Source: Candidatus Eiseniibacteriota bacterium (GTDB lineage Bacteria; Eisenbacteria; RBG-16-71-46; CAIMUX01). From it: 64,000 nt of DNA. The stretch is from NCBI GenBank assembly GCA_046327845.1, contig JAXLXQ010000018.1, forward strand, positions 1,085-65,084, written 5' to 3'. Every line of letters starts with the position of its first letter. Positions within the stretch are counted from its first letter, which is position 1. A program made the position numbers and the translations under genes. The notes beneath the pieces were generated by a model. The model did not search any database, was not told the origin of the DNA, and saw only the letters and a list, made by a program, of their open reading frames with translations. Positions 24,039-41,969 of the stretch are shown here, in pieces.

Positions 24039-25500
<1,462 letters not shown>

Positions 25501-26084: not shown

Positions 26085-27515
26085 TCACCGACGCCGCGTC
26101 ATCACCAGGAGAAAGCCAAAGTCTCGATCGACCGCGAACTCACTCCGGATGCGCTGCCTCACTGAAGCGGGCAAGAGTCGAAAGTGGTCATCGACAATCA
26201 CCGCACGAACGCGAGGGTCATCTAGCACCCCGAGTAGTTCGCTCTCGAGTTTCCCTGGTGGCAGGAGTCGGATCACATCGGAGTTGAGGAAGAAGTAGCG
26301 ATAAGCCGGCAGGCGCGTGAGGTACAGGCCGGACCAGAGGTCGAGCACGCGGTCCTCGGGGCGCGTCGCGCGGAGCACCGTGCGCAGCACCTCGACTTCG
26401 ACTCCCTGGCGCTGCACCGGAAGCAGCGCGACGCAGGGCGGCACGAGCAGCGCCAGGGGGAGCGCGACCCGGAAGGCGACGCCGCGGAACGACGCCCCGA
26501 TCGCAAGCACGACGCGGTGGCTGGCCCATGCAGCGGTGATGGCGAGCGCCGGCAGCACGAAGAGGAAGTATTGCCGCAGCGGCGCGTTCATCAGGAAGAA
26601 GCCGGCCAGCGCCGCGAGCAAGCTGCACGGGATCATCGTTCGCGGCGGACACTCGGGGAGCACTTCGCGTGAGCGCAGCAGTTGCCCGACGCCGATCGCG
26701 CCCAGCACCCAGGTCACAGGGTTGGCCTTCAGGATCGCCCCGCCCAAGAGCCCCCACCGCGTGCCCCACGGATCGTCGATCGTCATGTGGGCCGACGTTC
26801 CGATGCAGTCGTGCCAGAAGCCGCGAAGCGCCCCGGTCGAGGCGAGGACCGCGAGGATCATGGACGAGACGATGGCCCCGCCCAGGAGAGTCCACACGAT
26901 CGGCGCGGCCGCAGCGAAGCTCTTGGAGTCGCGCGCTCGATCGGAGAGAAGTCTGCCGAAGAGCGCACCGACAGCGGCGAAGAGCGCCTTGGGCGTGAAG
27001 AAGAGTGCGAGTCCGAAGGCAACGCCGGCTGCGCTCCACGCCACGCGCCCGCGTCGCGCAAGCAACCAGATCCCGAGCAGCAGGAAGAAGGCTCCGGGCA
27101 CGTCGGGCCGCACCTCCACTCCCTTCTCGAAGAAGTAGGCGGAGGTGAGGAGGAGGAGAGGCGCCAACAGCGCGCCGGTCACTCCGGCCAATCGCCTGGT
27201 CACGAGCGCGGTGATGAGGAGGATGCCCAGGCACGGCGCGAGCATCGCCCAGCGCGCCGCGCGGATGAGCGGCTCGGCGCCGAGCCCGCTTCGCGCGAGC
27301 GGCTGGAGCGACCAGTAGAGGAGCGGCGGGTGATTCTCGAAGAGCGAACCGTAGAGCGACTCGCCGTGCGCGACGGCGTAGGCCGCATTCAGGTGCTCCA
27401 ACTCATCGACATCGAGGAAGCGAGTCGGCGTGACCGAGATCCGAAAGGCGAGCGCGACCAGCAGAAAGGCTCCAAGAACCCACAACCAAGCGCGCTCGAG
27501 GCGGGTCACGTTCAT
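26085..27515 (-). CDS. GT-C fold glycosyltransferase (ArnT/PMT-like, polyprenyl-phosphate-sugar dependent), ~476 aa, polytopic
   Basis: Trimmed to MNVTRLERAWLWVLGAFLLV, which gives an ATGA overlap with the GT2 stop. DVDELEH acidic motif in the first periplasmic loop. About 11 TM helices followed by a soluble C-terminal domain. Confidence 0.7.
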   Translation of the reverse strand: MNVTRLERAWLWVLGAFLLVALAFRISVTPTRFLDVDELEHLNAAYAVAHGESLYGSLFENHPPLLYWSLQPLARSGLGAEPLIRAARWAMLAPCLGILLITALVTRRLAGVTGALLAPLLLLTSAYFFEKGVEVRPDVPGAFFLLLGIWLLARRGRVAWSAAGVAFGLALFFTPKALFAAVGALFGRLLSDRARDSKSFAAAAPIVWTLLGGAIVSSMILAVLASTGALRGFWHDCIGTSAHMTIDDPWGTRWGLLGGAILKANPVTWVLGAIGVGQLLRSREVLPECPPRTMIPCSLLAALAGFFLMNAPLRQYFLFVLPALAITAAWASHRVVLAIGASFRGVAFRVALPLALLVPPCVALLPVQRQGVEVEVLRTVLRATRPEDRVLDLWSGLYLTRLPAYRYFFLNSDVIRLLPPGKLESELLGVLDDPRVRAVIVDDHFRLLPASVRQRIRSEFAVDRDFGFLLVMTRRR

Positions 27516-28315
27516 CCTTGCGGCATATCCGACCGCCGCGCCGGGTCGCGCTCCACCACCTCGAGCCTTCGTCCGTCGGCGCGCAGAAAACGTGGCGTGT
27601 AGATGCCGAGGCGATCGAGGAAACCGCCCCACGATGCGCCGAGCACGCCCAATCCATAGCGCACGCTCCGCGCGAAGTTGATGCTCGAGGCTTCCGGGAA
27701 GTAGCGCGTCGGACAGGTGATCTCGCCGATGGTGTAGCCGCGGCGAATGATCTGCACCAGCATCTGGTTGTCGAAGACGAAGTCATCGGAGTTCTCGAGC
27801 AGCGGCAGGCTCTCGAGCACGCGCCGATGAAAGGCGCGAAAGCCGGTGTGGTACTCCGACAGCTTGTACTTCACGAGGAGGTTCTCGATCAGGGTGAGCG
27901 CGCGGTTCGAAACGTACTTGTACAACGGCATGCCGCCGGACAGCGCGCCCACGCCCAGGATCCTCGAACCGAGCACGACGTCGAACTGCCCTGTCGCGAT
28001 GAGCGACGCCATCGCGGTGACCAATCGCGGTGAGTATTGATAGTCCGGGTGGACCATCACCACGATCTCTTCGCCGCCGCGGAGCGCCTCGGCGTAGCAG
28101 GTCTTCTGGTTGCCGCCATAGCCGCGATTCACGGGGTGCAGAAAGGTGTCGATTCCCAACCGCCGCGCCACCTCGACGGTGGCATCGGCGCTCTGATCGT
28201 CGACCAGGATGACGCGATCGACGACGTCGTGCGGCAGCTCGCGATAGGTCTGCTCGAGCGTCTTCGCCGCGTTGTACGCCGGCATGACGACGCATACTCG
28301 GCAACCGTCGATCAC
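27512..28315 (-). CDS. GT2 family glycosyltransferase (polyprenyl-phosphate sugar synthase, DPM1/ArnC/GtrB-like)
   Basis: VVMPAYNAAKTL, ILVDDQSAD, NRGYGGNQK, HPDYQY. GTG start at 28315 chosen because GGGGGA lies 3 nt upstream and a 12-bp hairpin occupies 28401-28429. The track ORF extends to 28432. Confidence 0.8.
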   Translation of the reverse strand: MIDGCRVCVVMPAYNAAKTLEQTYRELPHDVVDRVILVDDQSADATVEVARRLGIDTFLHPVNRGYGGNQKTCYAEALRGGEEIVVMVHPDYQYSPRLVTAMASLIATGQFDVVLGSRILGVGALSGGMPLYKYVSNRALTLIENLLVKYKLSEYHTGFRAFHRRVLESLPLLENSDDFVFDNQMLVQIIRRGYTIGEITCPTRYFPEASSINFARSVRYGLGVLGASWGGFLDRLGIYTPRFLRADGRRLEVVERDPARRSDMPQG

Positions 28316-28400
28316 ACTTCCCCCTTGCGTAGGCGCCCGCGGTCGCCGCCCGCTCCTCCGCGGTGGCCCCGGTCGCGCGGAGGACATCGTAACAGGCGAA

Positions 28401-28429
28401 GCCCCGCCCGGGGTCATCCCGGGCGGGGC
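28401..28429 (-). terminator. Strong GC hairpin (12-bp stem, 5-nt loop) between the 42-heme cytochrome gene and the glycosyltransferase genes
   Basis: GCCCCGCCCGGG-GTCAT-CCCGGGCGGGGC. Starts about 40 nt after the cytochrome stop. No clear U-tract, so it may be a terminator, an attenuator or an mRNA-stabilising end. Confidence 0.45.
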
Positions 28430-28469
28430 CACTCTTCGGGCGCCCGCGTGCCTCCGACCTAGCGTGCCG

Positions 28470-31400
28470 CTAGTGGGCCGCCGTGTGGCACTGGATGCAC
28501 AGATCGCGACGTCGATCGGCTTGCAGCTGGAAGTCGAACTGCGAGGCGTGCGGGTTGTGGCACGACAGGCAGGTCAACGGGCCGTCGTTCCGAGGATCCT
28601 TGTACTGCGCGCCCAGGGGGTGCGTGTGCTTGGTTCCGTCGGCGTGGCAGGTCTGGCACAGCTCGTCGACGTTCGCCTTCAAGAGCTTCCCTTGATCGGC
28701 GCCGTGCGGCTGATGGCAGGAGCTACAGTCCGGCGTCTTGTTCAGGTGGCTCGACTTCCCCTGGAACATCGCCGGGTCATGGCAATTGCCGCAGACCGCG
28801 AGCTGTGAGCTGCTCTTCATCAGCGCCTTGCCGCTGCCGGCGTGCGGCGAGTGGCAGTTGAGGCACGCCTCGTCCTCGGTCATGGCCGGGTGCGTCACCG
28901 ACTTCGCCATCTCCTCCTTGATCTTGGGATGGCAGGTGGTGCACGCCTCCGGCCCCGTCGCCTTTCGCCCGCCGTTCGGGGTGTGGCAGGCCGCGCAGTT
29001 CCCCTGCGCGAAGGGCGGGTGAGTCGAGGCCTGCATGAGGTTGAGCTGCTTCGACGCGTGCGGGTCATGGCAGCTCAGACACGCGTCGGCCTCAAGCGCG
29101 TAGTTCTTGTGCTTCGCCTTGAGCGCGGGCGTGATCTGATGGCACGACTGGCAAAGCTCGCCCATCGGCTTCAAGAGTAGCGACTGCTCGCCGGAGCCGT
29201 GCGGGTTGTGGCAAGCCTGGCACTTGTCCTTCGCCACCGGGTCGTGCAGCTTCGCGCCCTCGAACGAGGCGACCAGATCCTTGTGACACTCACCGCAGAG
29301 CGCCTTCCCCTCCGCCTTCAGCAGCTTGGGATGGGTCGAGCGATGCGGATCGTGGCAGTCGCCGCACTTCCCTTCGGCCACCGGCGGATGGTGGACGCTC
29401 GCCCCCTCGGCGATGTCGGAGTGGCACTCCTTGCACAGATCCGGCTGCGCCTTCTGCAGCAGCTTGTCACGCTCGGAGGCGTGCGGGTTGTGGCAGATCA
29501 CGCACTCGCCGTCGGCAACCGGCGGATGCACCGACTCGCCGGCCGCGGCCGGCGCGGTGATGTCGGGATGGCAGGTGGCGCACTTCTCCGTCATCGAGCC
29601 GGTGAGCGGGCCCGGAGTGCCTTCGCCGTGACAGACCGCGCACTCGCCCGAATCGAATGGCGGGTGCCGCTTGGATGCGAGCAAGCCCTTCGACTCGGAC
29701 CCGTGCGGCTGATGGCAGCCGACGCAGTTGAGCTTCGCCAGCTCGGCTCCCTTGTGCTTCGCCTGGAGCGCAGGGTCGCTGGTGTCGTGACACTGCGCGC
29801 AGAGTTCGGTGGCAGCCGCGATCAGCATGCCGGGCGAGTCGCTGCCGTGGGCAACGTGGCAGGCAGTGCAGGCGCCGTCCCGTGCCGGCGGGTGCGCGGT
29901 GGGCAGGTTGATCGCCTTGGCGATGTCGGCGTGGCAGCTCAAGCAGGTCGCGCGCTCCGACGCGATCAGGAGGTGCGGCTCCTTGGATCCATGTCCACGG
30001 TGGCAGGAGTCGCAGCGCCCTTCCTTTACCGGCTCGTGCGGATTGGTCTTGGCCGCCGCCTGCTCCAGCACGTCGCCGTGGCACTCGCCGCACACTTCCT
30101 TCGCCTCGGCGCGCAGCCCGTTTTCCTTCTTACCAGAGTGCGGCGCGTGGCAGATCAGGCAGTCCTGATCGACGAAGCCTTGGTGCACGACCGGCAGGTT
30201 GCCCTGCGCGACCACGCCAGAGTGGCAACCCTTGCACAGGTCGGGGCTCTGCGCCTTCAGGAGGTGCGCCTGATCTCCGCCGTGCACCGTGTGGCAGGAG
30301 CCGCAATCGCCGCCGGCGAAGGGCGGGTGCGCGTACTCGTCGCCGCGAGCCGGTTCGGCATTCTCGTGACACTGCCCGCAGAGCTTTGCCTCGGGCGCGG
30401 CCAGCAGGTGGGGTTCATTGGAGAGGTGCGGGGCGTGGCAGTCGGTGCAGGCCATCGACTCGAGCGCGGGGTGCTTGACCGTGGCGTTGGTCGCGAGTGA
30501 GTCGATGTCGGCGTGGCACTGCTTGCAGGTTTCGCCGTTCTCCGCGCGAAGGAGACCACCGTGATCCGAGCCGTGGGGGTCGTGGCACTTCCCGCATTGA
30601 TCATCGTTGAACGGCGCGTGCACGGAGGCCACCGGGCTGGTCGGAATGAGCCCGTCGTGGCATTCGTTGCAAAGCTCCTTCACTTCCTTCTTGAGCACCG
30701 CCTCGGTCGTGCCCTTGTGCGGGTCGTGACAGGTGAGGCACTCCCCTTCGGCAGCAGGGGGATGCGGATGGGCGCGATCGCCGAGCTTCTCCAACTCGCC
30801 GTGACAGGTGGTGCAGAGTTCCGGCACCTGCGCCACGAGCGCTCCGCCGGTCGGGGTGGTGTGACAGGCCTCGCAGTTGCCCGTCCTGTACGGTTCGTGA
30901 CCGCCGGTCACGAGAAGCTGCTTCTCCCTGCTGCCGTGCGGCTCGTGGCAGGCGCCGCAGGGCGCTTGCTTCCACCCGTCGCCCGGGTGTTTGGCGGCGA
31001 GGGCGTCGCGTGACTTGCCGTGGCAGCTCAGGCAGAGCGCTTCCTCGTCCTGGTTGAGCAGCTTGGCCGTGGTGTTGCCGTGCACGGTGTGGCATGTGCC
31101 GCACTTCTCGCTCGAGGCCGGCGGATGCCCGCCCGCCGCGATCTTCTCTTTCACGTCCTCATGACAGGCAAGGCAGGAGAGATCGGCGTCGTAGCGACGG
31201 AGCAAGCCGTCGTCGGTCGAATTGTGAGGCGAGTGACAGACGAGGCAGTCGCCCCGCTCGGGCACGGGGTGGCCGGACTTCATCGCGCCGGTCGCGCTCT
31301 GCTCCGCGTGACAGCCGATGCAGAGGTCGGGCGGATTGGCCAGGAGAACGAGCTTTTGATCGAAGCCGTGACGCTTGTGACAGGCCTCGCACTTTCCGTC

Positions 31401-31574
31401 CGCCACCGGCTTGTGCTCGGTACCGGCCTTGTAGCGCTCGACCGCGTCAGCGTGGCAGTCGACGCACTCGCGCCCGCCCTTCGACTTCGACGCGGAAAGG
31501 CTGGACGCCGCCGGCCAGAGCGCGGCGATCGAGACGAGAGCCGCGATCGAGAACAGCTTCGCGGCGCGTTTCAT
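28470..31574 (-). CDS. Giant multiheme c-type cytochrome, 42 CxxCH motifs, built from ~21 tandem diheme (paired-CxxCH) repeats; Sec signal peptide
   Basis: I counted 42 CxxCH motifs in 1034 aa (one per ~25 aa). Recurring unit: HPP-x-G-x-C-xx-CH-x-PH-x(5-8)-LL-x(6-10)-LC-xx-CH. N-terminus: MKRAAKLFSIAALVSIAALWPAASS. Confidence 0.95.
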   Translation of the reverse strand: MKRAAKLFSIAALVSIAALWPAASSLSASKSKGGRECVDCHADAVERYKAGTEHKPVADGKCEACHKRHGFDQKLVLLANPPDLCIGCHAEQSATGAMKSGHPVPERGDCLVCHSPHNSTDDGLLRRYDADLSCLACHEDVKEKIAAGGHPPASSEKCGTCHTVHGNTTAKLLNQDEEALCLSCHGKSRDALAAKHPGDGWKQAPCGACHEPHGSREKQLLVTGGHEPYRTGNCEACHTTPTGGALVAQVPELCTTCHGELEKLGDRAHPHPPAAEGECLTCHDPHKGTTEAVLKKEVKELCNECHDGLIPTSPVASVHAPFNDDQCGKCHDPHGSDHGGLLRAENGETCKQCHADIDSLATNATVKHPALESMACTDCHAPHLSNEPHLLAAPEAKLCGQCHENAEPARGDEYAHPPFAGGDCGSCHTVHGGDQAHLLKAQSPDLCKGCHSGVVAQGNLPVVHQGFVDQDCLICHAPHSGKKENGLRAEAKEVCGECHGDVLEQAAAKTNPHEPVKEGRCDSCHRGHGSKEPHLLIASERATCLSCHADIAKAINLPTAHPPARDGACTACHVAHGSDSPGMLIAAATELCAQCHDTSDPALQAKHKGAELAKLNCVGCHQPHGSESKGLLASKRHPPFDSGECAVCHGEGTPGPLTGSMTEKCATCHPDITAPAAAGESVHPPVADGECVICHNPHASERDKLLQKAQPDLCKECHSDIAEGASVHHPPVAEGKCGDCHDPHRSTHPKLLKAEGKALCGECHKDLVASFEGAKLHDPVAKDKCQACHNPHGSGEQSLLLKPMGELCQSCHQITPALKAKHKNYALEADACLSCHDPHASKQLNLMQASTHPPFAQGNCAACHTPNGGRKATGPEACTTCHPKIKEEMAKSVTHPAMTEDEACLNCHSPHAGSGKALMKSSSQLAVCGNCHDPAMFQGKSSHLNKTPDCSSCHQPHGADQGKLLKANVDELCQTCHADGTKHTHPLGAQYKDPRNDGPLTCLSCHNPHASQFDFQLQADRRRDLCIQCHTAAH

Positions 31575-32065
31575 GGGGTGGTCCTCCCTATCCCTGGAGT
31601 CGCTGTCGTCGGGGCCTTGCCCGGCGCCCAGATCAGCGAGTCGACTTGAAACGAGAGCTCGGACTTGGGCGCGAAGTGCGGCACGTCGGTGAAGAAGGCC
31701 CAGCTGGCCTCGACGCGTTTGCTCCCCTCGTACACTTCCACCTTGAGCGCCGGATTGCGCATCTCCTTCGACCGCGAGATGACCTTCTTCGTGCGGTCGT
31801 CGATCGCGAAGTCAGGGACGAAGTCGACGATCTTGCCGTAGAAGTCGGTGTCGCCGATCTGAAACTTCTCACCGGGCACTGCGCGCTCGATCTCCACGAA
31901 GTCGGGGTGCATGCGGTGCGTGACCCGGAGCTGCACCGCCTGGAGCGAGGAATCGCACGAGGAAATGACGAAACCTAGGAGGGCCGCGGCGAGCAAGCGC
32001 ACGCGCGGGTTCCACCGCTCGAGTCTGGCGTCGAGTCGATGGCGGAAGCCGGGGAACTTCATCAT
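31571..32065 (-). CDS. Small lipoprotein (164 aa), unknown function
   Basis: Lipobox LLGFVISSC. ATGA overlaps with both flanking genes. Confidence 0.7.
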   Translation of the reverse strand: MMKFPGFRHRLDARLERWNPRVRLLAAALLGFVISSCDSSLQAVQLRVTHRMHPDFVEIERAVPGEKFQIGDTDFYGKIVDFVPDFAIDDRTKKVISRSKEMRNPALKVEVYEGSKRVEASWAFFTDVPHFAPKSELSFQVDSLIWAPGKAPTTATPGIGRTTP

Positions 32066-32721
32066 CGATCGTTCTCCAACGAGGCTCGGCGCGCGGGGTC
32101 CAGGGGAGGACCGACGCGACAGACGTTGCGCATCGACTGCGCCAGCTGGTGCGAGATGACCGCTGCCAGTCGGTCCGCGGTGCGGATGCGTCCGATGCCG
32201 AAGAAGGTCTCGCCGTCGTCTCCCTCGCGCGAGGCCGATCCAGCCCAGATCACGAGGCCGTTCGAAGCGTCGATCAGGCGCAGGGTGATCGCCACCACCG
32301 GCAGACCACGCGGCCGGTCCTTACCCTCCGCGTAGTCGATGCCACGCCCACCAGGGAGGTAGTCGGCGCCGGCATGGGAGGCGAGCGATTCCATCTGCTC
32401 GGCCGACATCCGGTCGGGGTCGAGGATGCGAAGCTGACGGAGGGCGCCGGACACCAGGCCCGGATCCTGGATGCGGAAGTGATCCAGCGCGCCCAATTCG
32501 ACCAGGAGCTTCTGCACGAAAACATTCCCCGCCGCCTCGGACGAGGTCAGATTGCCGAGCGGCAAGAACGCGACGGTGGCGCCCGGTCGAACCCCTGATT
32601 CGGCGACCGTGAACTGCTGCAAGCCCGGGGCGCATCCGACGAGGGTCACGAGCAGGAGCAGCGACAGGGCGGTCGCGGCCACCGACATCCGTCGTGAGTG
32701 CGAAGGGATCACGCGCTGCAT
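32062..32721 (-). CDS. Lipoprotein with LpoB/PelC/TolB-N-like signature
   Basis: Trimmed to MQRVIPSHSRRMSVAATALSLLLLVTLVGC (lipobox) with GAGAGG SD. ATVAFLPLGNLTSSEAAGNVFVQKLLVELG matches the (V/I)A(V/I)LPF-x-N pattern of this lipoprotein fold class. Confidence 0.65.
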   Translation of the reverse strand: MQRVIPSHSRRMSVAATALSLLLLVTLVGCAPGLQQFTVAESGVRPGATVAFLPLGNLTSSEAAGNVFVQKLLVELGALDHFRIQDPGLVSGALRQLRILDPDRMSAEQMESLASHAGADYLPGGRGIDYAEGKDRPRGLPVVAITLRLIDASNGLVIWAGSASREGDDGETFFGIGRIRTADRLAAVISHQLAQSMRNVCRVGPPLDPARRASLENDR

Positions 32722-32731
32722 CTTGCGCCTC

Positions 32732-33349
32732 TCAGTCCGGCAGGCGCCCGACCAGCTCATCCGCCACCGACTCGGTCAGCTCGGAGAGGGTCCGCGCGCC
32801 GCCCAGGTTCAAGATCGGTATCGCGGCGCCACCGCGTCGCGTCACGCTGGTCGACCAGACGATCGTGCCCGTCTTGACGTCGACCAATCGAACCTCGACC
32901 GACACCAGCGGCCGTCCGGTGGCCGATCCCTCGAGGAAGTCGCGCACCGTCCCCTCGAAGATGCCCTGCACGCCGGTCGAATCGCCGAGGGCCGAGAGGT
33001 TGGTGATCGGCAGCCCGATCGGCGGCGCGGTGTTGGCGCCGACCGAGATCGAGTAGGCCGAGAGGAACTGCCCCGGTTCAGCCACGGCAAACTTGCGCGA
33101 GAAGATGAGGTGCGAGGTGAAGGCGGAGGACATCTTGTCCCCGGCCAATCGATCGTTGGTCAGCGATGCGAACGGAAGGACGCCGACGCGCTCGTAATAG
33201 CCCCAGTCGGCCTCCTCGTGGAGGAAGCTGTTGCTGCCGCCACACCCCATGGCCAGCAGCAGGAGGATCGCACCGATCAGCAATCGCACTCGCACGACTT
33301 CCCCTCCCCTCGTTCCTCCTGCCCAACTACCCGGTCGCGATTGGCTCAC
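32732..33349 (-). CDS. Lipoprotein, distant paralog of the previous one (LpoB/PelC/TolB-N-like)
   Basis: Lipobox LLLLAMGC. RVGVLPFASLTNDRLAGDKMSSAFTSHL. Starts 4 nt after the barrel gene stop. Confidence 0.65.
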   Translation of the reverse strand: MSQSRPGSWAGGTRGGEVVRVRLLIGAILLLLAMGCGGSNSFLHEEADWGYYERVGVLPFASLTNDRLAGDKMSSAFTSHLIFSRKFAVAEPGQFLSAYSISVGANTAPPIGLPITNLSALGDSTGVQGIFEGTVRDFLEGSATGRPLVSVEVRLVDVKTGTIVWSTSVTRRGGAAIPILNLGGARTLSELTESVADELVGRLPD

Positions 33350-33353
33350 GAAG

Positions 33354-34994
33354 TCAGAAGCGCTGGAGCAGCGACGCGCTCCACAGGCTCGACCCCGAAC
33401 CGACCGCGGGCAGCGCTCGCGTGTGCGACGCCGTCATCTCCCACAGCCGGGAGACGCGAACACGAAGACTCCCGCCGCTGGTGATGCCGAAGGTCCGGCC
33501 CCTTCGCGCATCCTGATCGGAGGCGCGGACGGCGCTCCAGCTCCACGCGGCATCTCCCCAGCGCCACGGCGCCGACACGCTGCCCGAGACGCCGTACTTC
33601 GATCCGGCCGCCTGCTCGCGCAGTTGGTGTCCGTCGTAGCGCATCGTGATCGAACCACCGCGGGCCAAACTCAGAATCGTCTCCACCGTGTAGTAGACGC
33701 GATCCATGTGGCGCAGCGAGATCTTCTGACCTAAGCGATCGGCTTGGGTGCTGGCCTGAACTTGTACACCGTCCACCGGCCGGAGGCGAAGCTCGATGTT
33801 TTGGGCCACCCGGTAGCGCTGCGCGGCGGGTACGCCCTCCAACGCCTGACCGGTCCAGTCGATGGCAAAGATCGCGCCGGGGCGGAGCGGACCATCGAAG
33901 CGCAGGCCCAACTGATCTGAAGGAGTGCTGGCGCCGGTCTGCGCCAGGACCCAGTTGCGGGCCGCGGTCGCGGTCGCGGTCATCTCCGGCAGGACGTGGT
34001 GGCGGGTGACCAGCTGCGCGCGCATGTAGTCGTTGATCGACTCCGCGCCGGAGACGAGCTGCCGTTGATAGGTGCGAATCACCGCCACGTTCGAACCCTG
34101 CCAAGGCTCGATCGAGGTGTTGACGCTGCCGTCCAGATTGCGGTCGTTGCGATCGCGCCTGGCGCGTTCCCGGTAGCGCAGCGTCTCCCAGTTCAGGTCG
34201 CCGCCCAGGCTCCAGACGCGGGTCGGGCGGAGGGTGACGCGCGACTCCAAGTCATCTCGGGTGTTTCGCCGGGTGGAGCCGTCCCCGATTCGATCACGCC
34301 CCTGCACGTGCCGCGCGCCGAAGCCGCTCGTCATCCAGCTGCCGGTGGTGTGCTGCGCCTCCGCGCCGAATTGGGTCTCGCGCGTGCGACGACGCACCGC
34401 GGCCGCGCCCGGAATGGGGATCCCACCGATCGTGCGCTGACTGTTCGAGTCCTGCCAACGGTCGGAATAGTCGAAGTCGATTCCGCGGAGCCTCTGCGCC
34501 ACGGCGAGCCGTTGCTCGTCGACCTGCGTGTTGTTGGGATTGCCGATGCTGTTCGAACCGCCGTAGCGGCGTTCCCTCGAGGTCGACTCGAAGCGCAGGT
34601 TGGGCAGGCCTTCCTTGTGGAGCTGCCCGCCCCACGAGGTCTCATTGAGCTTCCACGTGGGCGGTTGATTGATCGAGACGCGCTGATCCGGGCGGTTGCG
34701 GAAGTAGAGGTCGAGCGGCGTGCTTCGAAACTGCAGGTCGCCGCGTCCGCGGAAGGTGTGGACACGCTGCTCGAAATCTTCTTCACGCTGCAACTGCCCG
34801 AGGAAAACGAGGGACCGGTCTAGGCCAAGGTGAAAGAGGGTGCGGCACTCTAGCACTTGATCGGACGTGCGGAATCTCCCGTTTGCTAGGCGGGAGGAGA
34901 GGTAGGTCGAATGCAGGCGATAGTCGACCTCGGCCTGGGCCGGTCCAACGAAACTCAAGACGGCAATGGCCACGAGACCGCTCCGGGCGCGCAT
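33354..34994 (-). CDS. Outer-membrane beta-barrel protein (546 aa)
   Basis: Signal peptide MRARSGLVAIAVLSFVGPAQA. Alternating amphipathic strand pattern rich in R, D, Y, G and T. C-terminal SLWSASLLQRF with terminal Phe (OMP signature). Its start overlaps the stop of the upstream cytochrome gene (TAATG). Confidence 0.8.
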   Translation of the reverse strand: MRARSGLVAIAVLSFVGPAQAEVDYRLHSTYLSSRLANGRFRTSDQVLECRTLFHLGLDRSLVFLGQLQREEDFEQRVHTFRGRGDLQFRSTPLDLYFRNRPDQRVSINQPPTWKLNETSWGGQLHKEGLPNLRFESTSRERRYGGSNSIGNPNNTQVDEQRLAVAQRLRGIDFDYSDRWQDSNSQRTIGGIPIPGAAAVRRRTRETQFGAEAQHTTGSWMTSGFGARHVQGRDRIGDGSTRRNTRDDLESRVTLRPTRVWSLGGDLNWETLRYRERARRDRNDRNLDGSVNTSIEPWQGSNVAVIRTYQRQLVSGAESINDYMRAQLVTRHHVLPEMTATATAARNWVLAQTGASTPSDQLGLRFDGPLRPGAIFAIDWTGQALEGVPAAQRYRVAQNIELRLRPVDGVQVQASTQADRLGQKISLRHMDRVYYTVETILSLARGGSITMRYDGHQLREQAAGSKYGVSGSVSAPWRWGDAAWSWSAVRASDQDARRGRTFGITSGGSLRVRVSRLWEMTASHTRALPAVGSGSSLWSASLLQRF

Positions 34995-36103
34995 TAGTCC
35001 TCCCCCTCACCTGGGTGGTGGACGTTCTCGCTGGTCGCGGAGCTGTAGTCGGAACCGTGGCAACCGAAGCATCCCCGGACGTCGGTGGCCGCGTGGCCGC
35101 CCTCGTCCGGGAGCGTGTTCATCACGATGCCGTCGACCGTGATGGAGCCCGGCACGCCGTTCGCCGGGATGTGGCAGCCAAGGCAGAACGCCCGGTTGGC
35201 CGCCGGATTGGTTTGGGTATCGACGAGCCCACGCCAGCCGGGTCGCTCGTCGCTGATCAAGAAGGCGTTCGGCGAAACGCCGTCGTTCCCGCGCGAACCG
35301 TGCGGGTTGTGGCACTCGTAGCAGGGGAGCGGATCGCCCGCCCGCATGTAGCTGGGCCAGGAGATCGCGATCTCGGGATTGCGGCGGATCTGGTGGCCGG
35401 CGCGCTGGTCATTGTTGATCGCGGGGTCGTAGTAGTCGGCGATGAGGCGATTCGGCGCATCCATGCCGACGGGACCCGAGGGACCGTGGCAGTCGAGGCA
35501 GGCCGCCATCCGAACCGCCGCGCGACCGGGCCAGCTTCCGCCCCAGGGTTGGTAGACGGCCTTCAAAAGATCGTGCGGGCCCGCCCCTTCGTGGGGATCG
35601 TGGCAGTTGCGGCAAAGGCCGCTGCCGTCGCCGTCTTCGATCGGCATGTCGGGGTCGTTGCGGTGCGGCGAGTAGTAGTGGCCGTTCGCGGCGACCCGCG
35701 TGTCTTCGAAGACCAGCATCCCCGGCCAGCGTCGTCTGAGCAGCACGCCCGGGGTGCGTTGGCCGCCGCTGTTGGCTTCGAAGTAACCAGGAGCGTCGGC
35801 GGTCTCGGGGAGGCGATCACTCTCGATCGCGGGATAACCCGGCGGGCGCTGATCATGGCAGCCACCGATTCCGCCGGCCCCGTAGCAAAGTTGATTGTCG
35901 TTCGGAGCGAAGAGGATCTTCGGCTCGGGCGTCATCCCCTCGTTGTCGTGAAGCGGATGGCACTGCGAGCACTCGCCGATGGTGGGTGGATCGGTCGGGA
36001 TGCGGTTGACGCCGTAGATCGGGTCATAGTGCGGATTGGCGCTCGGTGTCTGCGCCAGGCTGAGCAAGGTCATGAGAACGATCGGTCCGCCGGGTACGAA
36101 CAT
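34994..36103 (-). CDS. Multiheme c-type cytochrome: 6 CxxCH plus one possible Cx8CH site
   Basis: CSQCH, CRNCH, CLDCH, CYECH, CLGCH, CFGCH and CYGAGGIGGCH. Trimmed to MFVPGGPIVLMTLLSLAQTPSA (signal) with GGTGAGGAGA SD. The longer track ORF would run through a hairpin. Confidence 0.85.
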   Translation of the reverse strand: MFVPGGPIVLMTLLSLAQTPSANPHYDPIYGVNRIPTDPPTIGECSQCHPLHDNEGMTPEPKILFAPNDNQLCYGAGGIGGCHDQRPPGYPAIESDRLPETADAPGYFEANSGGQRTPGVLLRRRWPGMLVFEDTRVAANGHYYSPHRNDPDMPIEDGDGSGLCRNCHDPHEGAGPHDLLKAVYQPWGGSWPGRAAVRMAACLDCHGPSGPVGMDAPNRLIADYYDPAINNDQRAGHQIRRNPEIAISWPSYMRAGDPLPCYECHNPHGSRGNDGVSPNAFLISDERPGWRGLVDTQTNPAANRAFCLGCHIPANGVPGSITVDGIVMNTLPDEGGHAATDVRGCFGCHGSDYSSATSENVHHPGEGED

Positions 36104-36135
36104 CGTCCTTGTCTCCTCACCGCCCCTAGTGACTT

Positions 36136-36167
36136 GGGGCACGGCTGCGCGATGCGCCCCGTGCCCC
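36136..36167 (-). other. GC-rich hairpin in the OmcS-like / heptaheme intergenic region
   Basis: GGGGCACGG...CCGTGCCCC with an inner GCGC-GAT-GCGC extension. Lies about 35 nt upstream of the next start codon. Confidence 0.4.
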
Positions 36168-36240
36168 TCGTCTCTTCGTCCTCAGCCCTGCCGCCTTCCC
36201 CAGGGTCGCCGGGCGCTGGCGGCCGGAGCGAGTCGGAACG

Positions 36241-36266
36241 GCTCGCGCCGCCTACGCGGCGCGAGC
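36241..36266 (-). terminator. Perfect 10-bp hairpin immediately after the OmcS-like gene
   Basis: GCTCGCGCCG-CCTACG-CGGCGCGAGC, 10 nt after the TAG at 36277-36279. No U-tract. Confidence 0.5.
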
Positions 36267-36276
36267 GTCTATCCTA

Positions 36277-37281
36277 CTAGCCCTGAATGTGGCACTGCTT
36301 GCAGAGATCCTTCACCGCCACGCCATCGTCACCTTCCTCGGACACGGTGCCCGTGCCCTTCATGAAGATGAGGCCGAAGGCGTGCTTGTTGCCGTGCGCC
36401 TTGTGGCAGCTCATGCAGGACGGGGTCACGCCGGACGGCGGGGGATCCCACACGCCGGTCGGGCTCATCACGTGCACGCGGTTGGTGCGGCTGGTGAAGG
36501 TGGTGAGGCTGGAGTGCCCACCGGTCAGGCCGCCGATGTTGGCGTCAGCGTTCGGGTGGCGGAGCCACTCGGCGCCAGTCGCGTCACCGCCGACTTCCGG
36601 GCCGCCCTTGGCGCCGTGGAAGTTGGTGTGGCAGCCCTTGCAGAACATCGCGTACTTCGACGCGGTCTGATCCGGCTCGTTCCAGTCGACGTTGTTGTAG
36701 GCGTAGTGCGAGGTCATCGGGGTGGTGGCGCGCTCGAAGATGTCCTTGGTCAGGTCGTTCGTGCCGATCGCGTAGGTCACCGTCGAGTTCGACGGGGCCG
36801 TACCGGTCTTCACCCGAAGGTTACGATAGGCGCCGCCGGCACCGTGCTGATGGTGGCAGTCGGTGCAGCTCAGGCCGTTCGTGTTCGACCAGGTGCCGCC
36901 AGGAGCCACGTCGGTCGCGTCCAGGGTGTGGCCGGTCGCGTGGTAGTAGGGCGCCGAGCCGTTGCGGTTCAGACCACCAGCCTCGCGAACGTAGCTGTTG
37001 GAGTTCGCGCCGAGGACGTCCGGTGCGAACGAGGTGTTGTTGTGGCAGGTCAGGCACAGGTCGTTGACGTCATTACGCAGCAACGCCTCGTACGGACCAC
37101 TGGCGCCGAGCGGCGCGTAGATCCCGGTGCCGTCCTCGTTGTAGCCGTGGGTCTGGCTATAGTGCATGACGTGGCAGTCGGCGCAAACTAGCGTCGTCCC
37201 GGTGTGAAAGTCCCCGGCCATGGCAAGGGGGACTCCGATCAGAAGCGCGAATGCTCCGAGAAGAAGTCCGAGCCGTTTCAT
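36277..37281 (-). CDS. OmcS-like hexaheme c-type cytochrome (candidate filament-forming subunit)
   Basis: Six CxxCH: CADCH, CLTCH, CTDCH, CKGCH, CMSCH, CKQCH. Signal MKRLGLLLGAFALLIGVPLAMA. The mature end GDFHTGTTLVCADCHVMH resembles Geobacter OmcS FHSGGVAECEGCHTMH (from memory). FCKGCHTNFHG...WLRHP resembles WCANCHT...LRHP. The final LCKQCH resembles LCNKCH. Confidence 0.75.
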   Translation of the reverse strand: MKRLGLLLGAFALLIGVPLAMAGDFHTGTTLVCADCHVMHYSQTHGYNEDGTGIYAPLGASGPYEALLRNDVNDLCLTCHNNTSFAPDVLGANSNSYVREAGGLNRNGSAPYYHATGHTLDATDVAPGGTWSNTNGLSCTDCHHQHGAGGAYRNLRVKTGTAPSNSTVTYAIGTNDLTKDIFERATTPMTSHYAYNNVDWNEPDQTASKYAMFCKGCHTNFHGAKGGPEVGGDATGAEWLRHPNADANIGGLTGGHSSLTTFTSRTNRVHVMSPTGVWDPPPSGVTPSCMSCHKAHGNKHAFGLIFMKGTGTVSEEGDDGVAVKDLCKQCHIQG

Positions 37282-37325
37282 GTCAATCCTCACTTTCGGT
37301 ACGTCTTGGGGCGCCGAAACTACCG

Positions 37326-38441
37326 CTACCGCGAAGCCCCCGGCGCCAGGATGTCAGTCCGTCCACCCAACCCATCCACCCCAACTCCCACCGAGTCCCG
37401 ACCCGTGGGGGTCGTAGCCTCGGCTGAGATCTCAGGCGCGCTCATCTGGAAAGCAGAGAGGCGCGCGCCCAACCTCTCCAGCACGAACAGGCGATCCTTT
37501 CCGTCCGTGGCCATCGCCGCGGGATAGAGAAGATCGCCCAGCTCCCTGCCTGCCGCCCCAACCATTCCGACGTAGGTCCCGTCCAGAGCGAAGACCTTAA
37601 TCGTCTGGCGGATCGCATCCGCCACCCACATCCGCCCGGAGGCGGCCACCACTGCGGTAGGAAGAGAGAAGTTCTCGTTGCCAACATCGTGCGTTCCCAG
37701 CGCGAGCAGAAGCTCGTGCTCGGAATCGTAGACACGGACCGGCGGCTCGGCCGTCGCGTCCGTGATGTACAAGCGACCCGCGGGGTCCATGTACAAACTG
37801 GTGATCGCGCCGAAGGGCTTCGCCCCGGCGTCGCGGCCATCCACCGTCCAGAGGATCGTGTCGTCGCTCGCCACGCAGACGATCACGGCGTCATGCGAGC
37901 CGACCGCGACGATGAGGTGATCTTCGGGATCGAGCGCTAATGACACCGGTCGGAAGTCGCCGGGAATCGCGCTGGAGGAGTTCGGGTCGGGCGCAGCCCA
38001 TCCCTTGAACTGCGCCGGGTCGATCTGGCGGACGGGCTGGCCGAGGAGGTCCATCACCTCGACCCGGTCCGAGAGGGCGTCGATCAAGTAGAGGAGACCA
38101 TCCCGCGTCACCGCGAGATTCTTCGGCTCGCCCGGAATCGGACCGCGCGGGCTATCCGCGAAGACTTGGTAGCTACGAATCTGCATCCCCGACCCGTCGA
38201 GGGCGCGGATGCGGTGGTTGCCGGTGTCGGCGACCCAAAGAAGGTCCCCCTGAGCGTCGTAAGCCAGGCCGAGAGGGCGGTTGAAGTCGACCGCGGCGGA
38301 AGTCCTGTCGACCATCCAAAGAGGGGTCGCCTGCACAGCCCCCTCGGCTTGGCTTGGCGACGCCCAGAGGGATGCGGCCAGGACACCCGAGATCCAGCCC
38401 GTCACGATCCACCCACCGGACCGCTGCGGAAGGCGCCCCAT
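37326..38441 (-). CDS. NHL-repeat six-bladed beta-propeller protein, secreted
   Basis: Repeats such as LLWVADTGNHRIRALD, LLYLIDALSDRVEVMD, RLYITDATAEPPVRVYD, RMWVADAIRQTIKVFA and RLFVLERLGARLSAFQ. Start at MGRLPQRSGGWIVTGWISGVLAASLWASPSQA (GGAGG SD). The track ORF extends to 38525. Confidence 0.8.
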   Translation of the reverse strand: MGRLPQRSGGWIVTGWISGVLAASLWASPSQAEGAVQATPLWMVDRTSAAVDFNRPLGLAYDAQGDLLWVADTGNHRIRALDGSGMQIRSYQVFADSPRGPIPGEPKNLAVTRDGLLYLIDALSDRVEVMDLLGQPVRQIDPAQFKGWAAPDPNSSSAIPGDFRPVSLALDPEDHLIVAVGSHDAVIVCVASDDTILWTVDGRDAGAKPFGAITSLYMDPAGRLYITDATAEPPVRVYDSEHELLLALGTHDVGNENFSLPTAVVAASGRMWVADAIRQTIKVFALDGTYVGMVGAAGRELGDLLYPAAMATDGKDRLFVLERLGARLSAFQMSAPEISAEATTPTGRDSVGVGVDGLGGRTDILAPGASR

Positions 38442-38642
38442 GGTGGCCTCCGTCGCGATCCCCGTTTCGTGAATGGACTGGTTCATCTTGGTGTCCCTGG
38501 TTATGTGCCAGTTTTCACTAGTCACCTCGCGTGCCGAATTGGTCCAGAATTGGCCCTCAAACCAGCTGGGAGCTAATTGCCTGCGCAGAGGAAAGTTACG
38601 GAGAGAAAATCAGCAGCCCGGTCAAGTCGTAGCGTGGATGAG

Positions 38643-38749: not shown

Positions 38750-39445
38750 TCAGGCGAGCCGATAGAGACCGTTGATCGTGACACGGCGAGTCCCGTCGGC
38801 TTCCCGCACCACGGTCTCGGTCGGGACTTCGGGGACGAGGCCGTGGCGGCCGAAACGCAGGTCGAGTTCACCAGCGTCCAGGAGGCAAACTCGACCCAGT
38901 CGGGGATGCATGAAGAGGTGTGCGCTTCCTCCGACTGGCTCGAGCGGGCTGTCGATCGGACCGAACCCGGGACCGAAGTTCGCGACCAGGGCGTGCCCTC
39001 CCGAGCGGAGCACCCGACGCGTCTCGGCAATGGCCGCCTCGAATTCCCCCTCGTCCTTCGCCAGGAAGTACACCCCGAGGGCAATCACCCAGTCGAAGCT
39101 CCCGCTGGCGAAGCGATCCAACCGATCCATACGAGCCGCCTGAGCTCTCGCGGTCGCCTGCTCAAGACCGAGGATGGGAACGAGCCGCTCGCGCGTGTGC
39201 TCGACCATCGCACTCGACGCGTCGACCGCCTCGAGATCGAATCCCATCGTGGCTAGGAAGACGGCGTTCCGACCCCCGGCGCAGCCCAGGTCGAGAACCC
39301 TTGTCGCGGACGGGCTGGGGACACTCCCGAGGATCGCTGACACGCGATGGTCCACCTCGCGCGCCGCGAACTCCCGCACCTGCTCGGGCTCCTCCCAGAA
39401 TGGATCGCCGAAGTTCATGTGAACGATTTCTCCATCTTCTTGCAC
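38750..39445 (-). CDS. Class I SAM-dependent methyltransferase
   Basis: Motif I VLDLGCAGGRNAVFLATMG followed by AVDASSAMVEH. About 230 aa. Confidence 0.8.
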   Translation of the reverse strand: MQEDGEIVHMNFGDPFWEEPEQVREFAAREVDHRVSAILGSVPSPSATRVLDLGCAGGRNAVFLATMGFDLEAVDASSAMVEHTRERLVPILGLEQATARAQAARMDRLDRFASGSFDWVIALGVYFLAKDEGEFEAAIAETRRVLRSGGHALVANFGPGFGPIDSPLEPVGGSAHLFMHPRLGRVCLLDAGELDLRFGRHGLVPEVPTETVVREADGTRRVTINGLYRLA

Positions 39446-39638
39446 CCCGGAGCGGCGCCGTCTTGCTCACGCGAGGGACGATCTCTAGACTCCCCGCACG
39501 CAACTGAAGGCGGCTTCGCGCAAACGCAGGCGTTGCGAGCGCCGTAGCCACCCTCCGCTGCTCCCCGGCAAGCCAGTGTACGTGATCTCACTTGTCCGCA
39601 TGGAAGTTGAACGTTCGAACAAGGAGGACAGTGTAGCA

Positions 39639-41969
39639 ATGAGGTCCCCAGCCATCCGCGTCAGTGGCTTTCTTGCCATCGCCGCCATCGCCACCACGTC
39701 TTCGGCAATGGCACCCCCCCCAGGCACGACCTCGGTCGCGCAAGATCCGTGGGTGCACGGCGAGATCCTTGTACAACTTTCGACCGCGGCGATGCGGTCG
39801 GCGGACTTTCACAGCAACCTGATGTCGTCGGGCCGGACCGGAATCGCGTTGGTCGACCAGAGCCTCCGCGCCATCGGGTCATTCGAGGTCTCGAGTGTCT
39901 TCGAGCGGGGCAACGATCCGGGCGCCCGCTCCGCCGCCGGACTGGACCGCATCTTCCGCGTGCGCTACGCCGATTTGATGACTCCTGATCAGGCGGCCCG
40001 GATGTTCGCCGCGAACGGCGACGTCGTGTTCGCCGAACCGAATTTCATCGCGCACGCGCTGGTCACGCCGAACGATCCGACCTACCCACTGCAGTGGGCG
40101 CACAACAACACCGGTCAGGCGATCAGCTACACCGGCGGCAACGTCGGTACGGCCGACTGCGACACCGACACTGATCAAGCGTGGGATCTGCAGACCGGCA
40201 GCGCGACCTTCATCCTCTCGGTGATCGACACGGGCGTCGACACCGGGCATCCGGAGTTCGCGGGACGAATCGTCGCCGGCTTCGACTACGTGAACAACGA
40301 CTCGAACCCGACCGACGACAATGGCCACGGCACCTGCTGCGCCGGAATCGCGGCCGGGGCCGGCAACAACGCGGCGGGCACCGCCGGCGTGGCCTGGAAC
40401 GTGAAGATCATGCCGGTCAAGGTGCTCGACTCCGCCGGCAGCGGCTCCTACACCTGGGTCGCGAATGGAATGACCTTCGCCGCCGACAATGGCGCCAAGA
40501 TCCTCTCCATGAGCCTCGGCGGTCCGGCATCCTCGACGCTCCAGACCGCGGTGAACTACGCGGTGAATACGAAGGGGTGCGCCCTCTTCGCTGCCACTGG
40601 CAACTCGAACGCCTCGGCGCTCGATTATCCGGCGGCATACAGCAACGTGATCTCGGTCGGCGCGCTGTCGCCGTGCAATGAGCGGAAGAGCCCGTCGAGC
40701 TGCGACGGCGAGAACTGGTGGGGCTCGAACTACGGCACCGGGATCGACTTCATGGCGCCCGGCGTGCGCATCCATTGCCCGGACATCCGCGGTGCCGGCG
40801 GTTTCGGTTCCGGTGACTACATCTCGGACTTCAACGGCACCTCATCGGCCACTCCGCATGCCGCGGGGATCGGTGCGCTCGTCTGGTCACAGAATCCGGC
40901 GTTGACCAACACCGGACTCCTCACCGTTCTGCAAAACAACTGCGATGACATCGGCACCGCCGGCTATGACACGCAGACCGGCTACGGTCGCTTGAACGCC
41001 TTCCGCGCCGTGCAGAACGCCGCGGGTGGTGGTGGCGGCGGCGGCACTCCCATCACCGTCTTCTCGGAGGACTTCGAGACCAACGTGGTGCCCGGCACGG
41101 TCTGGGGCGCCAACGACGCGAACGGCACGAGCGGTGCCGACTACTGGGGCGACCAGTCGAGCGGCTCGGGTGCGCGGGTACACGGTGGAAGCTGGAGCGC
41201 CTACTGCGCGGACAATTCCAGCGTCGCCGGGCAGCGCTACGACAACAACATGACCGCGTACATGACCAAGACCGCATCGGTCAGCCTGAGTGGCGTGACC
41301 AACGTCACCTTCTCCTTCTGGTTCTGGAACGCGACCTTCAACGCCAGCGACTACCTGGCCTTCCAGTACTGGAACGGCACAGCTTGGGTCGAGCAGCAGC
41401 GCTGGTCCGGCGCGAGCACCGGCTGGACGCAGGCGAGCTACACGCTCACCGGCTTCACCACGTTCCAGTGGCGCTGGCTCTTCTTCTCGAACTCCAGCAG
41501 CACTGCCGAAGGGGCGTACATCGACGACATCGTGATCTCCGGCGTGACCGCGATCGCCCCGCCGCAGCCGATGGCGGTAACCCTTCTTAGCGAACGCACC
41601 GAGCCCGACATGACCGCCTCGCTTCGGGGCGATCTCTCGAGCGTGAAGGGAAACCCGGTCGAGATTGAAGCGCCCGAGCTGGCGTCGATCGAGCCGGGGC
41701 ACCTGGCCGCGTCTCCCAACCCGGTGATGAGCAGCGCGACGCTCCGCTTCGCCCTCGCCATCCCTGGTTCGGTGAGTCTTGAGGTGTACAGCGCGGATGG
41801 ACGGCGCGTGGCTCGAGTCTTCGAGGGCGCTCTCGCCGCCGGTCCGCACAGTCTCGACTGGAACGGCGCGGGCGGCGACGGGCGCGCGCTTCCCGCCGGG
41901 GTCTACTATGCGCGGCTCAGCATCGACGGCGCGCTGAGCGCCGTCTCGAGGATGGTCCTCGTGAGGTAG
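39639..41969 (+). CDS. Subtilisin-like serine protease (S8) with FlgD-Ig/T9SS-like C-terminal sorting domain
   Basis: Catalytic triad contexts VIDTGVDTGHPEF, GHGTCCAGIAAG and GTSSATPHAAG. Start at MRSPAIRVSGFLAIAAIATTSSAMA with AAGGAGGA SD. C-terminus: SPNPVMSSATLRFAL...VYSADGRRVARV...GVYYARL...RMVLVR. Confidence 0.9.
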   Translation: MRSPAIRVSGFLAIAAIATTSSAMAPPPGTTSVAQDPWVHGEILVQLSTAAMRSADFHSNLMSSGRTGIALVDQSLRAIGSFEVSSVFERGNDPGARSAAGLDRIFRVRYADLMTPDQAARMFAANGDVVFAEPNFIAHALVTPNDPTYPLQWAHNNTGQAISYTGGNVGTADCDTDTDQAWDLQTGSATFILSVIDTGVDTGHPEFAGRIVAGFDYVNNDSNPTDDNGHGTCCAGIAAGAGNNAAGTAGVAWNVKIMPVKVLDSAGSGSYTWVANGMTFAADNGAKILSMSLGGPASSTLQTAVNYAVNTKGCALFAATGNSNASALDYPAAYSNVISVGALSPCNERKSPSSCDGENWWGSNYGTGIDFMAPGVRIHCPDIRGAGGFGSGDYISDFNGTSSATPHAAGIGALVWSQNPALTNTGLLTVLQNNCDDIGTAGYDTQTGYGRLNAFRAVQNAAGGGGGGGTPITVFSEDFETNVVPGTVWGANDANGTSGADYWGDQSSGSGARVHGGSWSAYCADNSSVAGQRYDNNMTAYMTKTASVSLSGVTNVTFSFWFWNATFNASDYLAFQYWNGTAWVEQQRWSGASTGWTQASYTLTGFTTFQWRWLFFSNSSSTAEGAYIDDIVISGVTAIAPPQPMAVTLLSERTEPDMTASLRGDLSSVKGNPVEIEAPELASIEPGHLAASPNPVMSSATLRFALAIPGSVSLEVYSADGRRVARVFEGALAAGPHSLDWNGAGGDGRALPAGVYYARLSIDGALSAVSRMVLVR

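Follow-up and report, generated by a model that had tools for sequence, protein, structure and literature searches.

A putative compact OscE/OscF/OscG outer membrane module beside an OmcS-family cytochrome gene in a Candidatus Eiseniibacteriota bacterium

Here we analyzed a 64,000-nt stretch of DNA from a Candidatus Eiseniibacteriota bacterium (GCA_046327845.1, contig JAXLXQ010000018.1, positions 1,085-65,084), hereafter referred to as the window, with a focus on a predicted outer membrane (OM) barrel protein and two lipoproteins encoded among multiheme cytochromes. Positions 32062-34994 probably encode a compact form of the OscE/OscF/OscG OM module known from the osc cluster, which would pass, mount or anchor an OmcS-family cytochrome subunit. 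The two lipoproteins, A and B, resemble OscF and a single domain of OscG, respectively, their predicted fold is closest to that of PelC, and the three-gene order recurs next to OmcS homologs in other bacteria.

Layout of the cluster

The cluster spans 28470-38525 on the minus strand and consists of eight tightly packed genes, listed here in the order in which they would be transcribed.

37326..38525, minus strand: NHL-repeat beta-propeller protein, first gene of the cluster (Pfam NHL, E 2e-16)
36277..37293, minus strand: OmcS-family hexaheme cytochrome, 338 aa with 6 CxxCH motifs (identified by family profile and hhalign)
34994..36142, minus strand: second hexaheme cytochrome (hexaheme-2), 382 aa with 6 CxxCH motifs, a distant OmcS relative
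33354..34994, minus strand: putative OM beta-barrel, probable shortened OscE homolog, 546 aa
32732..33349, minus strand: lipoprotein A, PelC-like single-domain OscF homolog
32062..32760, minus strand: lipoprotein B, PelC-like, homolog of one OscG domain
31571..32065, minus strand: lipoprotein C, unrelated to A and B
28470..31574, minus strand: 42-heme c-type cytochrome, 1034 aa, in the position of OscI

Three junctions, hexaheme-2/barrel, B/C, and C/42-heme, have overlapping start and stop codons. Lipoproteins A, B, and C each have a lipobox, with a Cys that is conserved among the homologs of each protein. A scan for promoters and terminators gave a result at chance level. A preliminary description of this region had placed four open reading frames (ORFs), a barrel and three lipoproteins, at 31571-34994 between cytochrome genes. 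All four are present there on the minus strand, with the two hexaheme genes on one side and the cytochrome with 42 CxxCH motifs on the other.

Lipoproteins A and B are paralogs with a PelC-like predicted fold

Lipoprotein A has the lipobox LLAMG-C, with a Cys that is invariant in its family, and lipoprotein B has the lipobox TLVG-C. The true start of B is likely the ATG at 32721, as in its homolog P0005. The motif VxxLPxxxLT is common to both proteins, occurring as VGVLPFASLT in A and VAFLPLGNLT in B, and it was the basis on which the two had been paired in the preliminary description. BLASTP supports that pairing, as A and B align over 147 residues with 24% identity (E 1e-10) and are paralogs.

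A profile of A and its relatives was searched against the PDB, where PelC ranked first (5T11, 5T10, and 9H80_C; E 6e-9 to 2e-8), followed at lower significance by GNA1162 (3.5e-5) and LpoB (5e-3). B was represented by its natural homolog P0005 (97% identity), for which AlphaFold2 (AF2) gave a model with a predicted local distance difference test score (pLDDT) of 77.6. The best Foldseek matches to this model were the PelC dodecamer and PelC in the PelBC complex (5T10, 5T11, 9H80; E ~2e-11, TM 0.72-0.80), with GNA1162, FlgT, LpoB, TolB, and CsgG ranking below. Both the profile search (PelC, E 6e-9) and Foldseek (E 2e-11) bear out the LpoB/PelC/TolB-N fold class that had been suggested from the motif, and A and B are predicted to have a PelC-like fold, with PelC the closest solved structure by both methods.

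GNA1162-like (PF05643), LpoB (PF13036), and CsgG (PF03783) proteins belong to the same broad fold class as A and B. Membership in the LpoB or CsgG family was rejected, as the window proteins fall below the Pfam cut-offs. Against LpoB, with a cut-off of 22.3 bits, B reaches 16.6 and A 12.6 bits, and some of their homologs pass; against CsgG, A reaches 17.4 bits (cut-off 20.8) over residues 145-171 only. The GNA1162-like match in the window lipoproteins is likewise weak and sub-threshold, while 14 of the 18 members of the A/OscF alignment match the GNA1162-like and LpoB models. CsgG also forms its own membrane pore, whereas a separate barrel is encoded here.

Within lipoprotein B, at ~32325-32350, the window copy has YLPGGRGIDY in place of the YLL(V/A)GV(V/I)T(D/E)(Y/F) seen in P0005 and every other homolog. 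The conserved residues recur in another frame, which indicates a +1 insertion followed ~20 nt later by a -1 deletion. This pair of frameshifts could reflect a mistake in the assembly or genuine damage to a core strand. When four close lipoprotein A sequences were used to scan metagenomes, just one contig, of 3 kb, was retrieved.

The module recurs next to OmcS homologs and corresponds to OscE, OscF, and OscG

For comparison, loci were fetched with an OmcS sequence fragment only, taking one genome per species, which yielded 78 loci from Geobacterales, Nitrospirota, Anaeromyxobacter, and others. The OscE-, OscF-, and OscG-like families were defined solely from these loci, in which they follow omcS in that same order. 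Hidden Markov models (HMMs) of A and B match adjacent ORFs within a few kb of the OmcS gene (E 1e-20 to 1e-32), and these ORFs follow one of ~750 aa. Of the 37 loci with full flanks, 33 have the order of barrel, lipoprotein, and lipoprotein no more than 10 kb from an OmcS homolog. The three genes form a module tied to an OmcS-like cytochrome rather than being neighbors by chance, and linkage to the OmcS family is conserved across at least six phylum-level groups.

For example, the genes of locus L008 encode, in order, OmcS, a small cytochrome, an OmcS-like protein, a YncE-type propeller lipoprotein, a 767-aa OM protein, a 198-aa lipoprotein positive for LpoB and GNA1162, a 431-aa protein, and a peptidyl-prolyl isomerase (PPIase). 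This order matches G. sulfurreducens from GSU2504 down to GSU2496, where GSU2497 is annotated "lipoprotein" and GSU2499 "hypothetical", with a YVTN propeller between GSU2499 and GSU2501. According to PMC13194489, GSU2501 is oscC, GSU2495 is oscI, and GSU2494 is oscJ. Interpolating from these neighboring names, OscE would be GSU2499, OscF GSU2498, and OscG GSU2497. Citing Shen et al. 2025 (Cell Chem Biol 32:239), PMC13194489 places omcS in the osc (omcS-companion) operon, and both this paper and bioRxiv 2025.10.22.684050 give a role in OmcS secretion as the one proposed for OscE, OscF, and OscG. The preliminary description had set the window apart from Geobacter; this contrast is wrong, since Geobacter-type omcS clusters carry a homologous OscE/F/G module that has already been described next to omcS.

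Lipoprotein A aligns with the OscF-like family over its full length (hhalign, 99.6%, E 1.4e-24), and the OscF HMM in turn prefers A within the window (1e-22), making the two reciprocal best matches. The same is true of B and OscG, where B aligns with the C-terminal domain of the OscG-like family (99.5%, E 3e-22) as well as the N-terminal domain (98.3%), and the OscG HMM prefers B (3e-26). Since B aligns with both halves, canonical OscG consists of two PelC-like domains in tandem. In 30 of the 32 OscG-like proteins scanned, the B model matched a second time in the N-terminal part, mostly across a whole domain. Lipoprotein B itself is a single-domain protein and does not have the Geobacter-type tandem OscG architecture.

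The barrel is a probable, shortened OscE homolog

The 546-residue barrel protein has the N-terminal signal peptide MRARSGLVAIAVLSFVGPAQA, followed by EV, ends in SLLQRF, and contains a single Cys. The signal peptide and terminal Phe had both been noted previously. It has no match in Pfam or NCBIfam, and profile searches of the barrel and OscE-like proteins against Pfam, NCBIfam, and the PDB gave nothing solid; the weak library matches were to one member each, with OMP_b-brl at E 0.016-0.1 and TIGR03016 at E 0.003. AF2, run on a 5-sequence alignment, predicted all-beta hairpin secondary structure at a pLDDT of 34, which carries no weight, and a count of amphipathic strands on the barrel alignment was too noisy to be used. 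The beta-barrel fold is therefore probable rather than established.

The barrel family is rare, with 18 representatives at E<=1e-3 among 1.84 billion. Its HMM matches 14 ORFs (E 2e-8 to 4e-3), each of which takes the place of OscE within an OmcS locus. With hhalign, barrel residues 16-246 align with OscE-like residues 17-268 (96.9%, E 1.6e-10), and 254-556 align collinearly with 451-749 (82%), rising to 98.9% in global mode. Based on these alignments, the barrel is likely an OscE homolog, although the link is weaker than for A and B.

The window barrel is ~200 aa shorter than OscE and does not contain a central insert of ~180 aa. In canonical OscE-like proteins, the segment missing from the window barrel coincides with a region of weak F5/8 type C and CBM32 similarity. 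Weak Pfam matches to F5/8 type C and NedA-like galactose-binding domains were found in the insert of 4 of 14 members (best E 9.5e-5), along with a CBM32 match in the PDB (E 0.018). Examples of OscE-like ORFs with this weak carbohydrate-binding-type segment are L008:14969-17272 and L063:14115-16373.

The 338-aa hexaheme cytochrome belongs to the OmcS family

The 338-aa hexaheme cytochrome has more than 1100 relatives, those named being in Eisenbacteria, Krumholzibacteria, Latescibacterota, Zixibacteria, and Acidobacteriota. The only significant PDB match of the family profile is OmcS (6EF8, E 4e-7), which is collinear from FHSGG...CxxCHxMH onward, and the family aligns with the canonical OmcS family at 99.7% (hhalign, E 5e-26). 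In all 22 sequences compared, the CxxCHxMH motif retains the His aligned with OmcS His16. His16 is reportedly the inter-subunit heme ligand of OmcS. An inter-subunit bond between His and heme of this kind exists according to the literature. Judging from its sequence, the 338-aa protein is an OmcS-family member and a putative nanowire subunit.

The 382-aa hexaheme-2 is more distant, aligning at 97.4% with the 338-aa family and at 95.4% with canonical OmcS. This protein may serve as a base or adaptor. An NHL ORF immediately precedes the OmcS-like gene in compact loci as well as in many loci of the Geobacter type (HMM E 1e-12 to 1e-19). This gene, rather than the YncE-type propeller that precedes OscE, is the counterpart of the window propeller.

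The compact layout is found in several phyla

We refer to the order NHL, OmcS-like, hexaheme-2, barrel (~540 aa), A, B, C, and 42-heme as compact. Apart from the window, it was found in full or in part as follows.

L001, Eisenbacteria metagenome-assembled genome (MAG): full compact order
L002 and L003, metagenome contigs: full compact order
L084, Krumholzibacteria: full compact order
L086, unclassified MAG: full compact order
L088, metagenome contig: full compact order
L083, Latescibacterota: compact order without NHL, and with a 21-heme cytochrome instead of the 42-heme cytochrome
L090: module in another gene order, without C
L087, Acidobacteriota MAG GCA_040752675.1, 603-14619: hybrid cluster

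The barrel, A, and B are present in every compact-type locus with enough sequence. L087 combines a compact 345-aa OmcS-like subunit with a canonical-type OscE of 693 aa, a barrel that matches both barrel HMMs, and also encodes OscF, a tandem OscG, a PPIase of the OscH type, a propeller of the OscD type, and a 26-heme cytochrome. This cluster bridges the compact and Geobacter-type layouts.

Like the osc cluster of Geobacter, the window encodes a barrel, a ~200-aa lipoprotein, and a second PelC-like lipoprotein in the same order, with an OmcS-family hexaheme gene alongside and the gene for a giant multiheme cytochrome following, and homology is detectable for all three module proteins, though less firmly for the barrel. 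The differences are found both within the module and around it. The window barrel lacks the ~200 aa described above, including the central insert, and its OscG homolog has one PelC-like domain rather than two. An NHL propeller precedes the subunit gene and there is no YncE-type OscD before the barrel; instead, a second hexaheme is coupled to the barrel gene. Lipoprotein C is an additional component, and there is no OscH PPIase within the 64 kb. Finally, the giant cytochrome carries 42 rather than 26 hemes, and the subunit has 338 aa compared with ~430 aa.

Lipoprotein C pairs with the 42-heme cytochrome

Lipoprotein C (lipobox VISS-C) shows no similarity to A or B, consistent with its earlier description as unrelated, and has no match in Pfam, NCBIfam, or the PDB. 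It also does not match the OscE, OscF, or OscG profiles. The possibility that it is a split-off first domain of OscG was rejected, as there is no match to OscG.

The 1034-aa cytochrome contains exactly 42 CxxCH motifs, a number that is constant in all full-length orthologs counted (5 to 6), including that of L085. In 10 loci, L085 and L089 among them, the gene for lipoprotein C immediately precedes that for the giant cytochrome. In these two Zixibacteria-type loci, the pair of C and 42-heme genes lies several genes away from the hexaheme-2/barrel pair, which in L089 is located at the contig end, and in L090 the barrel, A, and B occur without an adjoining C. Based on this separation and absence, C belongs with the 42-heme cytochrome rather than with the barrel module, and the two form a separate conserved two-gene unit. 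The four-gene block of the preliminary description, comprising the barrel and all three lipoproteins, is thereby reduced to three. In L085 (12649-16230) and L089 (6950-10528), the C and 42-heme pair is followed by a conserved 194-aa membrane protein.

In canonical loci, a related cytochrome of ~650 aa is encoded downstream of OscG/OscH, and GSU2495 has been described as a 26-heme protein of ~70 kDa. The 42-heme protein is likely a periplasmic electron feeder.

Flanking genes

The scanned ORFs of the cluster and its flanks encode cytochromes, a propeller, GT2, PMT_2, and peptidases. GT2 and PMT_2 (GT-C, protein-mannosyltransferase-like) are located at 26085-28432 on the minus strand, starting 38 nt downstream of the 42-heme gene, and might glycosylate surface cytochromes. 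Glycosylation clusters have been reported beside omcE clusters (bioRxiv 2025.10.22.684050).

On the other side, at 38750-41969, the cluster is flanked by a co-directional S-adenosylmethionine (SAM) methyltransferase gene and a divergent gene for an S8 subtilase with a C-terminal FlgD_ig domain. This flank is also present in L001 (1-1389) and L003 (1-2952). In Geobacter, a subtilisin-type protease processes the precursor of the OmcZ nanowire; a processing role for the S8 subtilase here is pure speculation.

Further away, at 24014-25500 on the plus strand, the gene for a sigma-54-dependent response regulator is broken into two ORFs that overlap, one encoding the receiver and AAA domains and the other the AAA lid and HTH_8, probably due to a frameshift near 24892-24955. 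A histidine kinase gene lies just upstream (22341-24038). Like the frameshift pair in B, the split regulator hints at indel errors or pseudogenes in this contig.

Proposed function and alternatives

In the Pel system, twelve PelC lipoproteins ring the periplasmic face of the PelB barrel (PMC12141448). A and B resemble PelC (5T10, 5T11, 5T0Z, 9H80) not only as its best profile and fold matches but also in being lipidated, in being encoded beside an OM barrel, and in a setting where a polymer reaches the cell surface. Identity to PelC is only 17-25%, however, and two paralogs are found here (three domains in Geobacter types) compared with the PelC homo-dodecamer. The proposed cargo is a heme protein, while that of PelC is a cationic polysaccharide. 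The window barrel also differs from PelB, as it does not contain a TPR region and has no detectable similarity to solved barrels.

Following the PelBC analogy, A and B would be lipid-anchored in the inner leaflet of the OM, where both would assemble into a shared PelC-like ring seated on the OscE-like barrel at its periplasmic rim. Barrel, A, and B would then jointly pass, mount, or anchor the OmcS-family hexaheme subunit, which may polymerize outside the cell into a conductive filament, with the 42-heme protein and lipoprotein C supplying electrons across the periplasm. The homologies, the predicted PelC-like fold, and the conserved gene neighborhood come from the analysis itself, whereas ring assembly, which way the cargo moves, whether filaments form, and what C does are inferences. 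The preliminary description had suggested a dedicated OM device for either the 42-heme protein or the OmcS-like subunit. The idea is reasonable. Its tie to the OmcS-like subunit holds up, in the 33 of 37 loci noted above, and its tie to the 42-heme protein does not; ring formation and export remain a matter of analogy. A porin-like pathway is also described as the current hypothesis in bioRxiv 2025.10.22.684050.

Several points weigh against an OscEFG-like role for the window module. Its function in this organism, and in the compact type generally, is deduced by homology, and the function of OscEFG itself is taken here from papers that cite Shen et al. 2025. The link between the barrel and OscE is weak, since beta-barrels are repetitive and the OscE HMM gave no direct match to the window barrel. 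A folded, heme-loaded subunit of ~33 kDa would be a large cargo for a predicted barrel of ~525 residues. An HMM of the OscH PPIase, built from 30 ORFs directly downstream of OscG (two of which were checked with Pfam and are PPIases), matched no ORF of at least 80 aa in the 64-kb window, though an OscH-like PPIase may be encoded elsewhere in the genome. Lastly, G. sulfurreducens is not among the 78 fetched loci, the best of which is 70% identical to OmcS; this species may be absent from or masked in the searched contig collection.

The main rival is a porin-cytochrome conduit in which the barrel sheathes an electron-carrying cytochrome as in MtrAB/Pcc, with the PelC-like lipoproteins only stabilizing the complex and no protein being exported. 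A barrel gene next to multiheme cytochrome genes is the usual signature of such conduits, and the window shares this feature with MtrAB and the Geobacter Pcc. Hexaheme-2 would be the best candidate for the sheathed cytochrome, as its gene lies immediately before, and overlaps, that of the barrel in every compact locus, and the 42-heme cytochrome of the same operon could feed it. This constant coupling keeps the conduit in consideration, but we regard it as unlikely overall. In a PDB profile search, the barrel showed no similarity to MtrB or any solved barrel, and the homologous Geobacter-type barrel is preceded by a propeller, with no cytochrome gene directly before it. Known porin-cytochrome complexes such as MtrAB/Pcc do not have a PelC-like ring or PelC-like lipoproteins, and the cytochrome encoded nearby is of the filament type and belongs to the OmcS family. 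Secretion is the role given to OscEFG in the literature (PMC13194489). The conduit and secretion roles are not mutually exclusive and can coexist.

A more elaborate version of the OscEFG-like reading, to which we give a lower probability than to the conduit, is that the compact cluster of uncultured FCB-group phyla is a self-contained, chaperone-free trans-envelope "cable" kit. The 42-heme protein would be a periplasmic wire held at the membrane by lipoprotein C, passing electrons to hexaheme-2, which would sit in or under the barrel as the base of the filament. The mixed A/B ring would dock on the barrel as PelC does on PelB, with twelve protomers arranged as 6 x (A+B) here or as 4 x (OscF + two OscG domains) in Geobacter, and OmcS-like subunits would polymerize on top. 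If true, PelBC would supply a structural template for the mounting of cytochrome nanowires on the cell, a problem that the field regards as unsolved.

It is very unlikely that the module belongs to a Pel-like glycan exporter for a polysaccharide or glycoconjugate made with the downstream GT2 (27512-28432) and PMT_2 (26085-27632), with the cytochromes as mere neighbors. PelC is the closest structure, both glycosyltransferase-type genes are on the same strand, and canonical OscE-like barrels have the weak F5/8 type C, CBM32 insert. However, the window barrel contains no such carbohydrate-binding-type insert, and no Pfam family, including a PelB-like TPR region, was matched in it. GT2 and PMT_2 are not conserved beside the module in other compact loci, while the OmcS-like subunit, hexaheme-2, and the giant cytochrome are, and this consistent linkage to cytochromes speaks against the exporter. 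Membership in the Pel system was rejected, as there is no TPR/PelB partner and no Pel-family match among the ORFs of the cluster and its immediate flanks, which were the part of the window scanned. Least probable of all is that A and B are housekeeping envelope lipoproteins (LpoB-like, regulating peptidoglycan synthases, or TolB/CsgG-like) that lie in a cytochrome operon by chance, as their weak Pfam matches to LpoB, CsgG, and GNA1162-like families include scores of 16.6 and 17.4 bits against cut-offs of 22.3 and 20.8, PelC lies far above LpoB and CsgG by profile and fold, and the linkage to the OmcS family spans at least six phylum-level groups.

Implications

How heme-loaded cytochrome subunits cross the OM and form filaments is an unanswered question in current papers (bioRxiv 2025.10.22.684050). 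The general idea of an OscEFG pathway has already been published for Geobacter, so the gain here is in scope and in a minimal version of the module rather than a new principle. What is new, relative to Shen et al. 2025 as represented in the papers citing it, is the compact architecture in little-studied phyla, the reassignment of lipoprotein C, and the explicit PelC template. The match to PelC provides a concrete, testable model, in which a lipoprotein ring would sit on the rim of the barrel. The OscEFG-type module appears to extend, in stripped-down form, to Eisenbacteria, Krumholzibacteria, and Latescibacterota. The only parts retained there, the barrel and the two single-domain PelC-like lipoproteins, would make up the conserved core. 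This suggests that little-known soil and sediment phyla may build OmcS-type nanowires.

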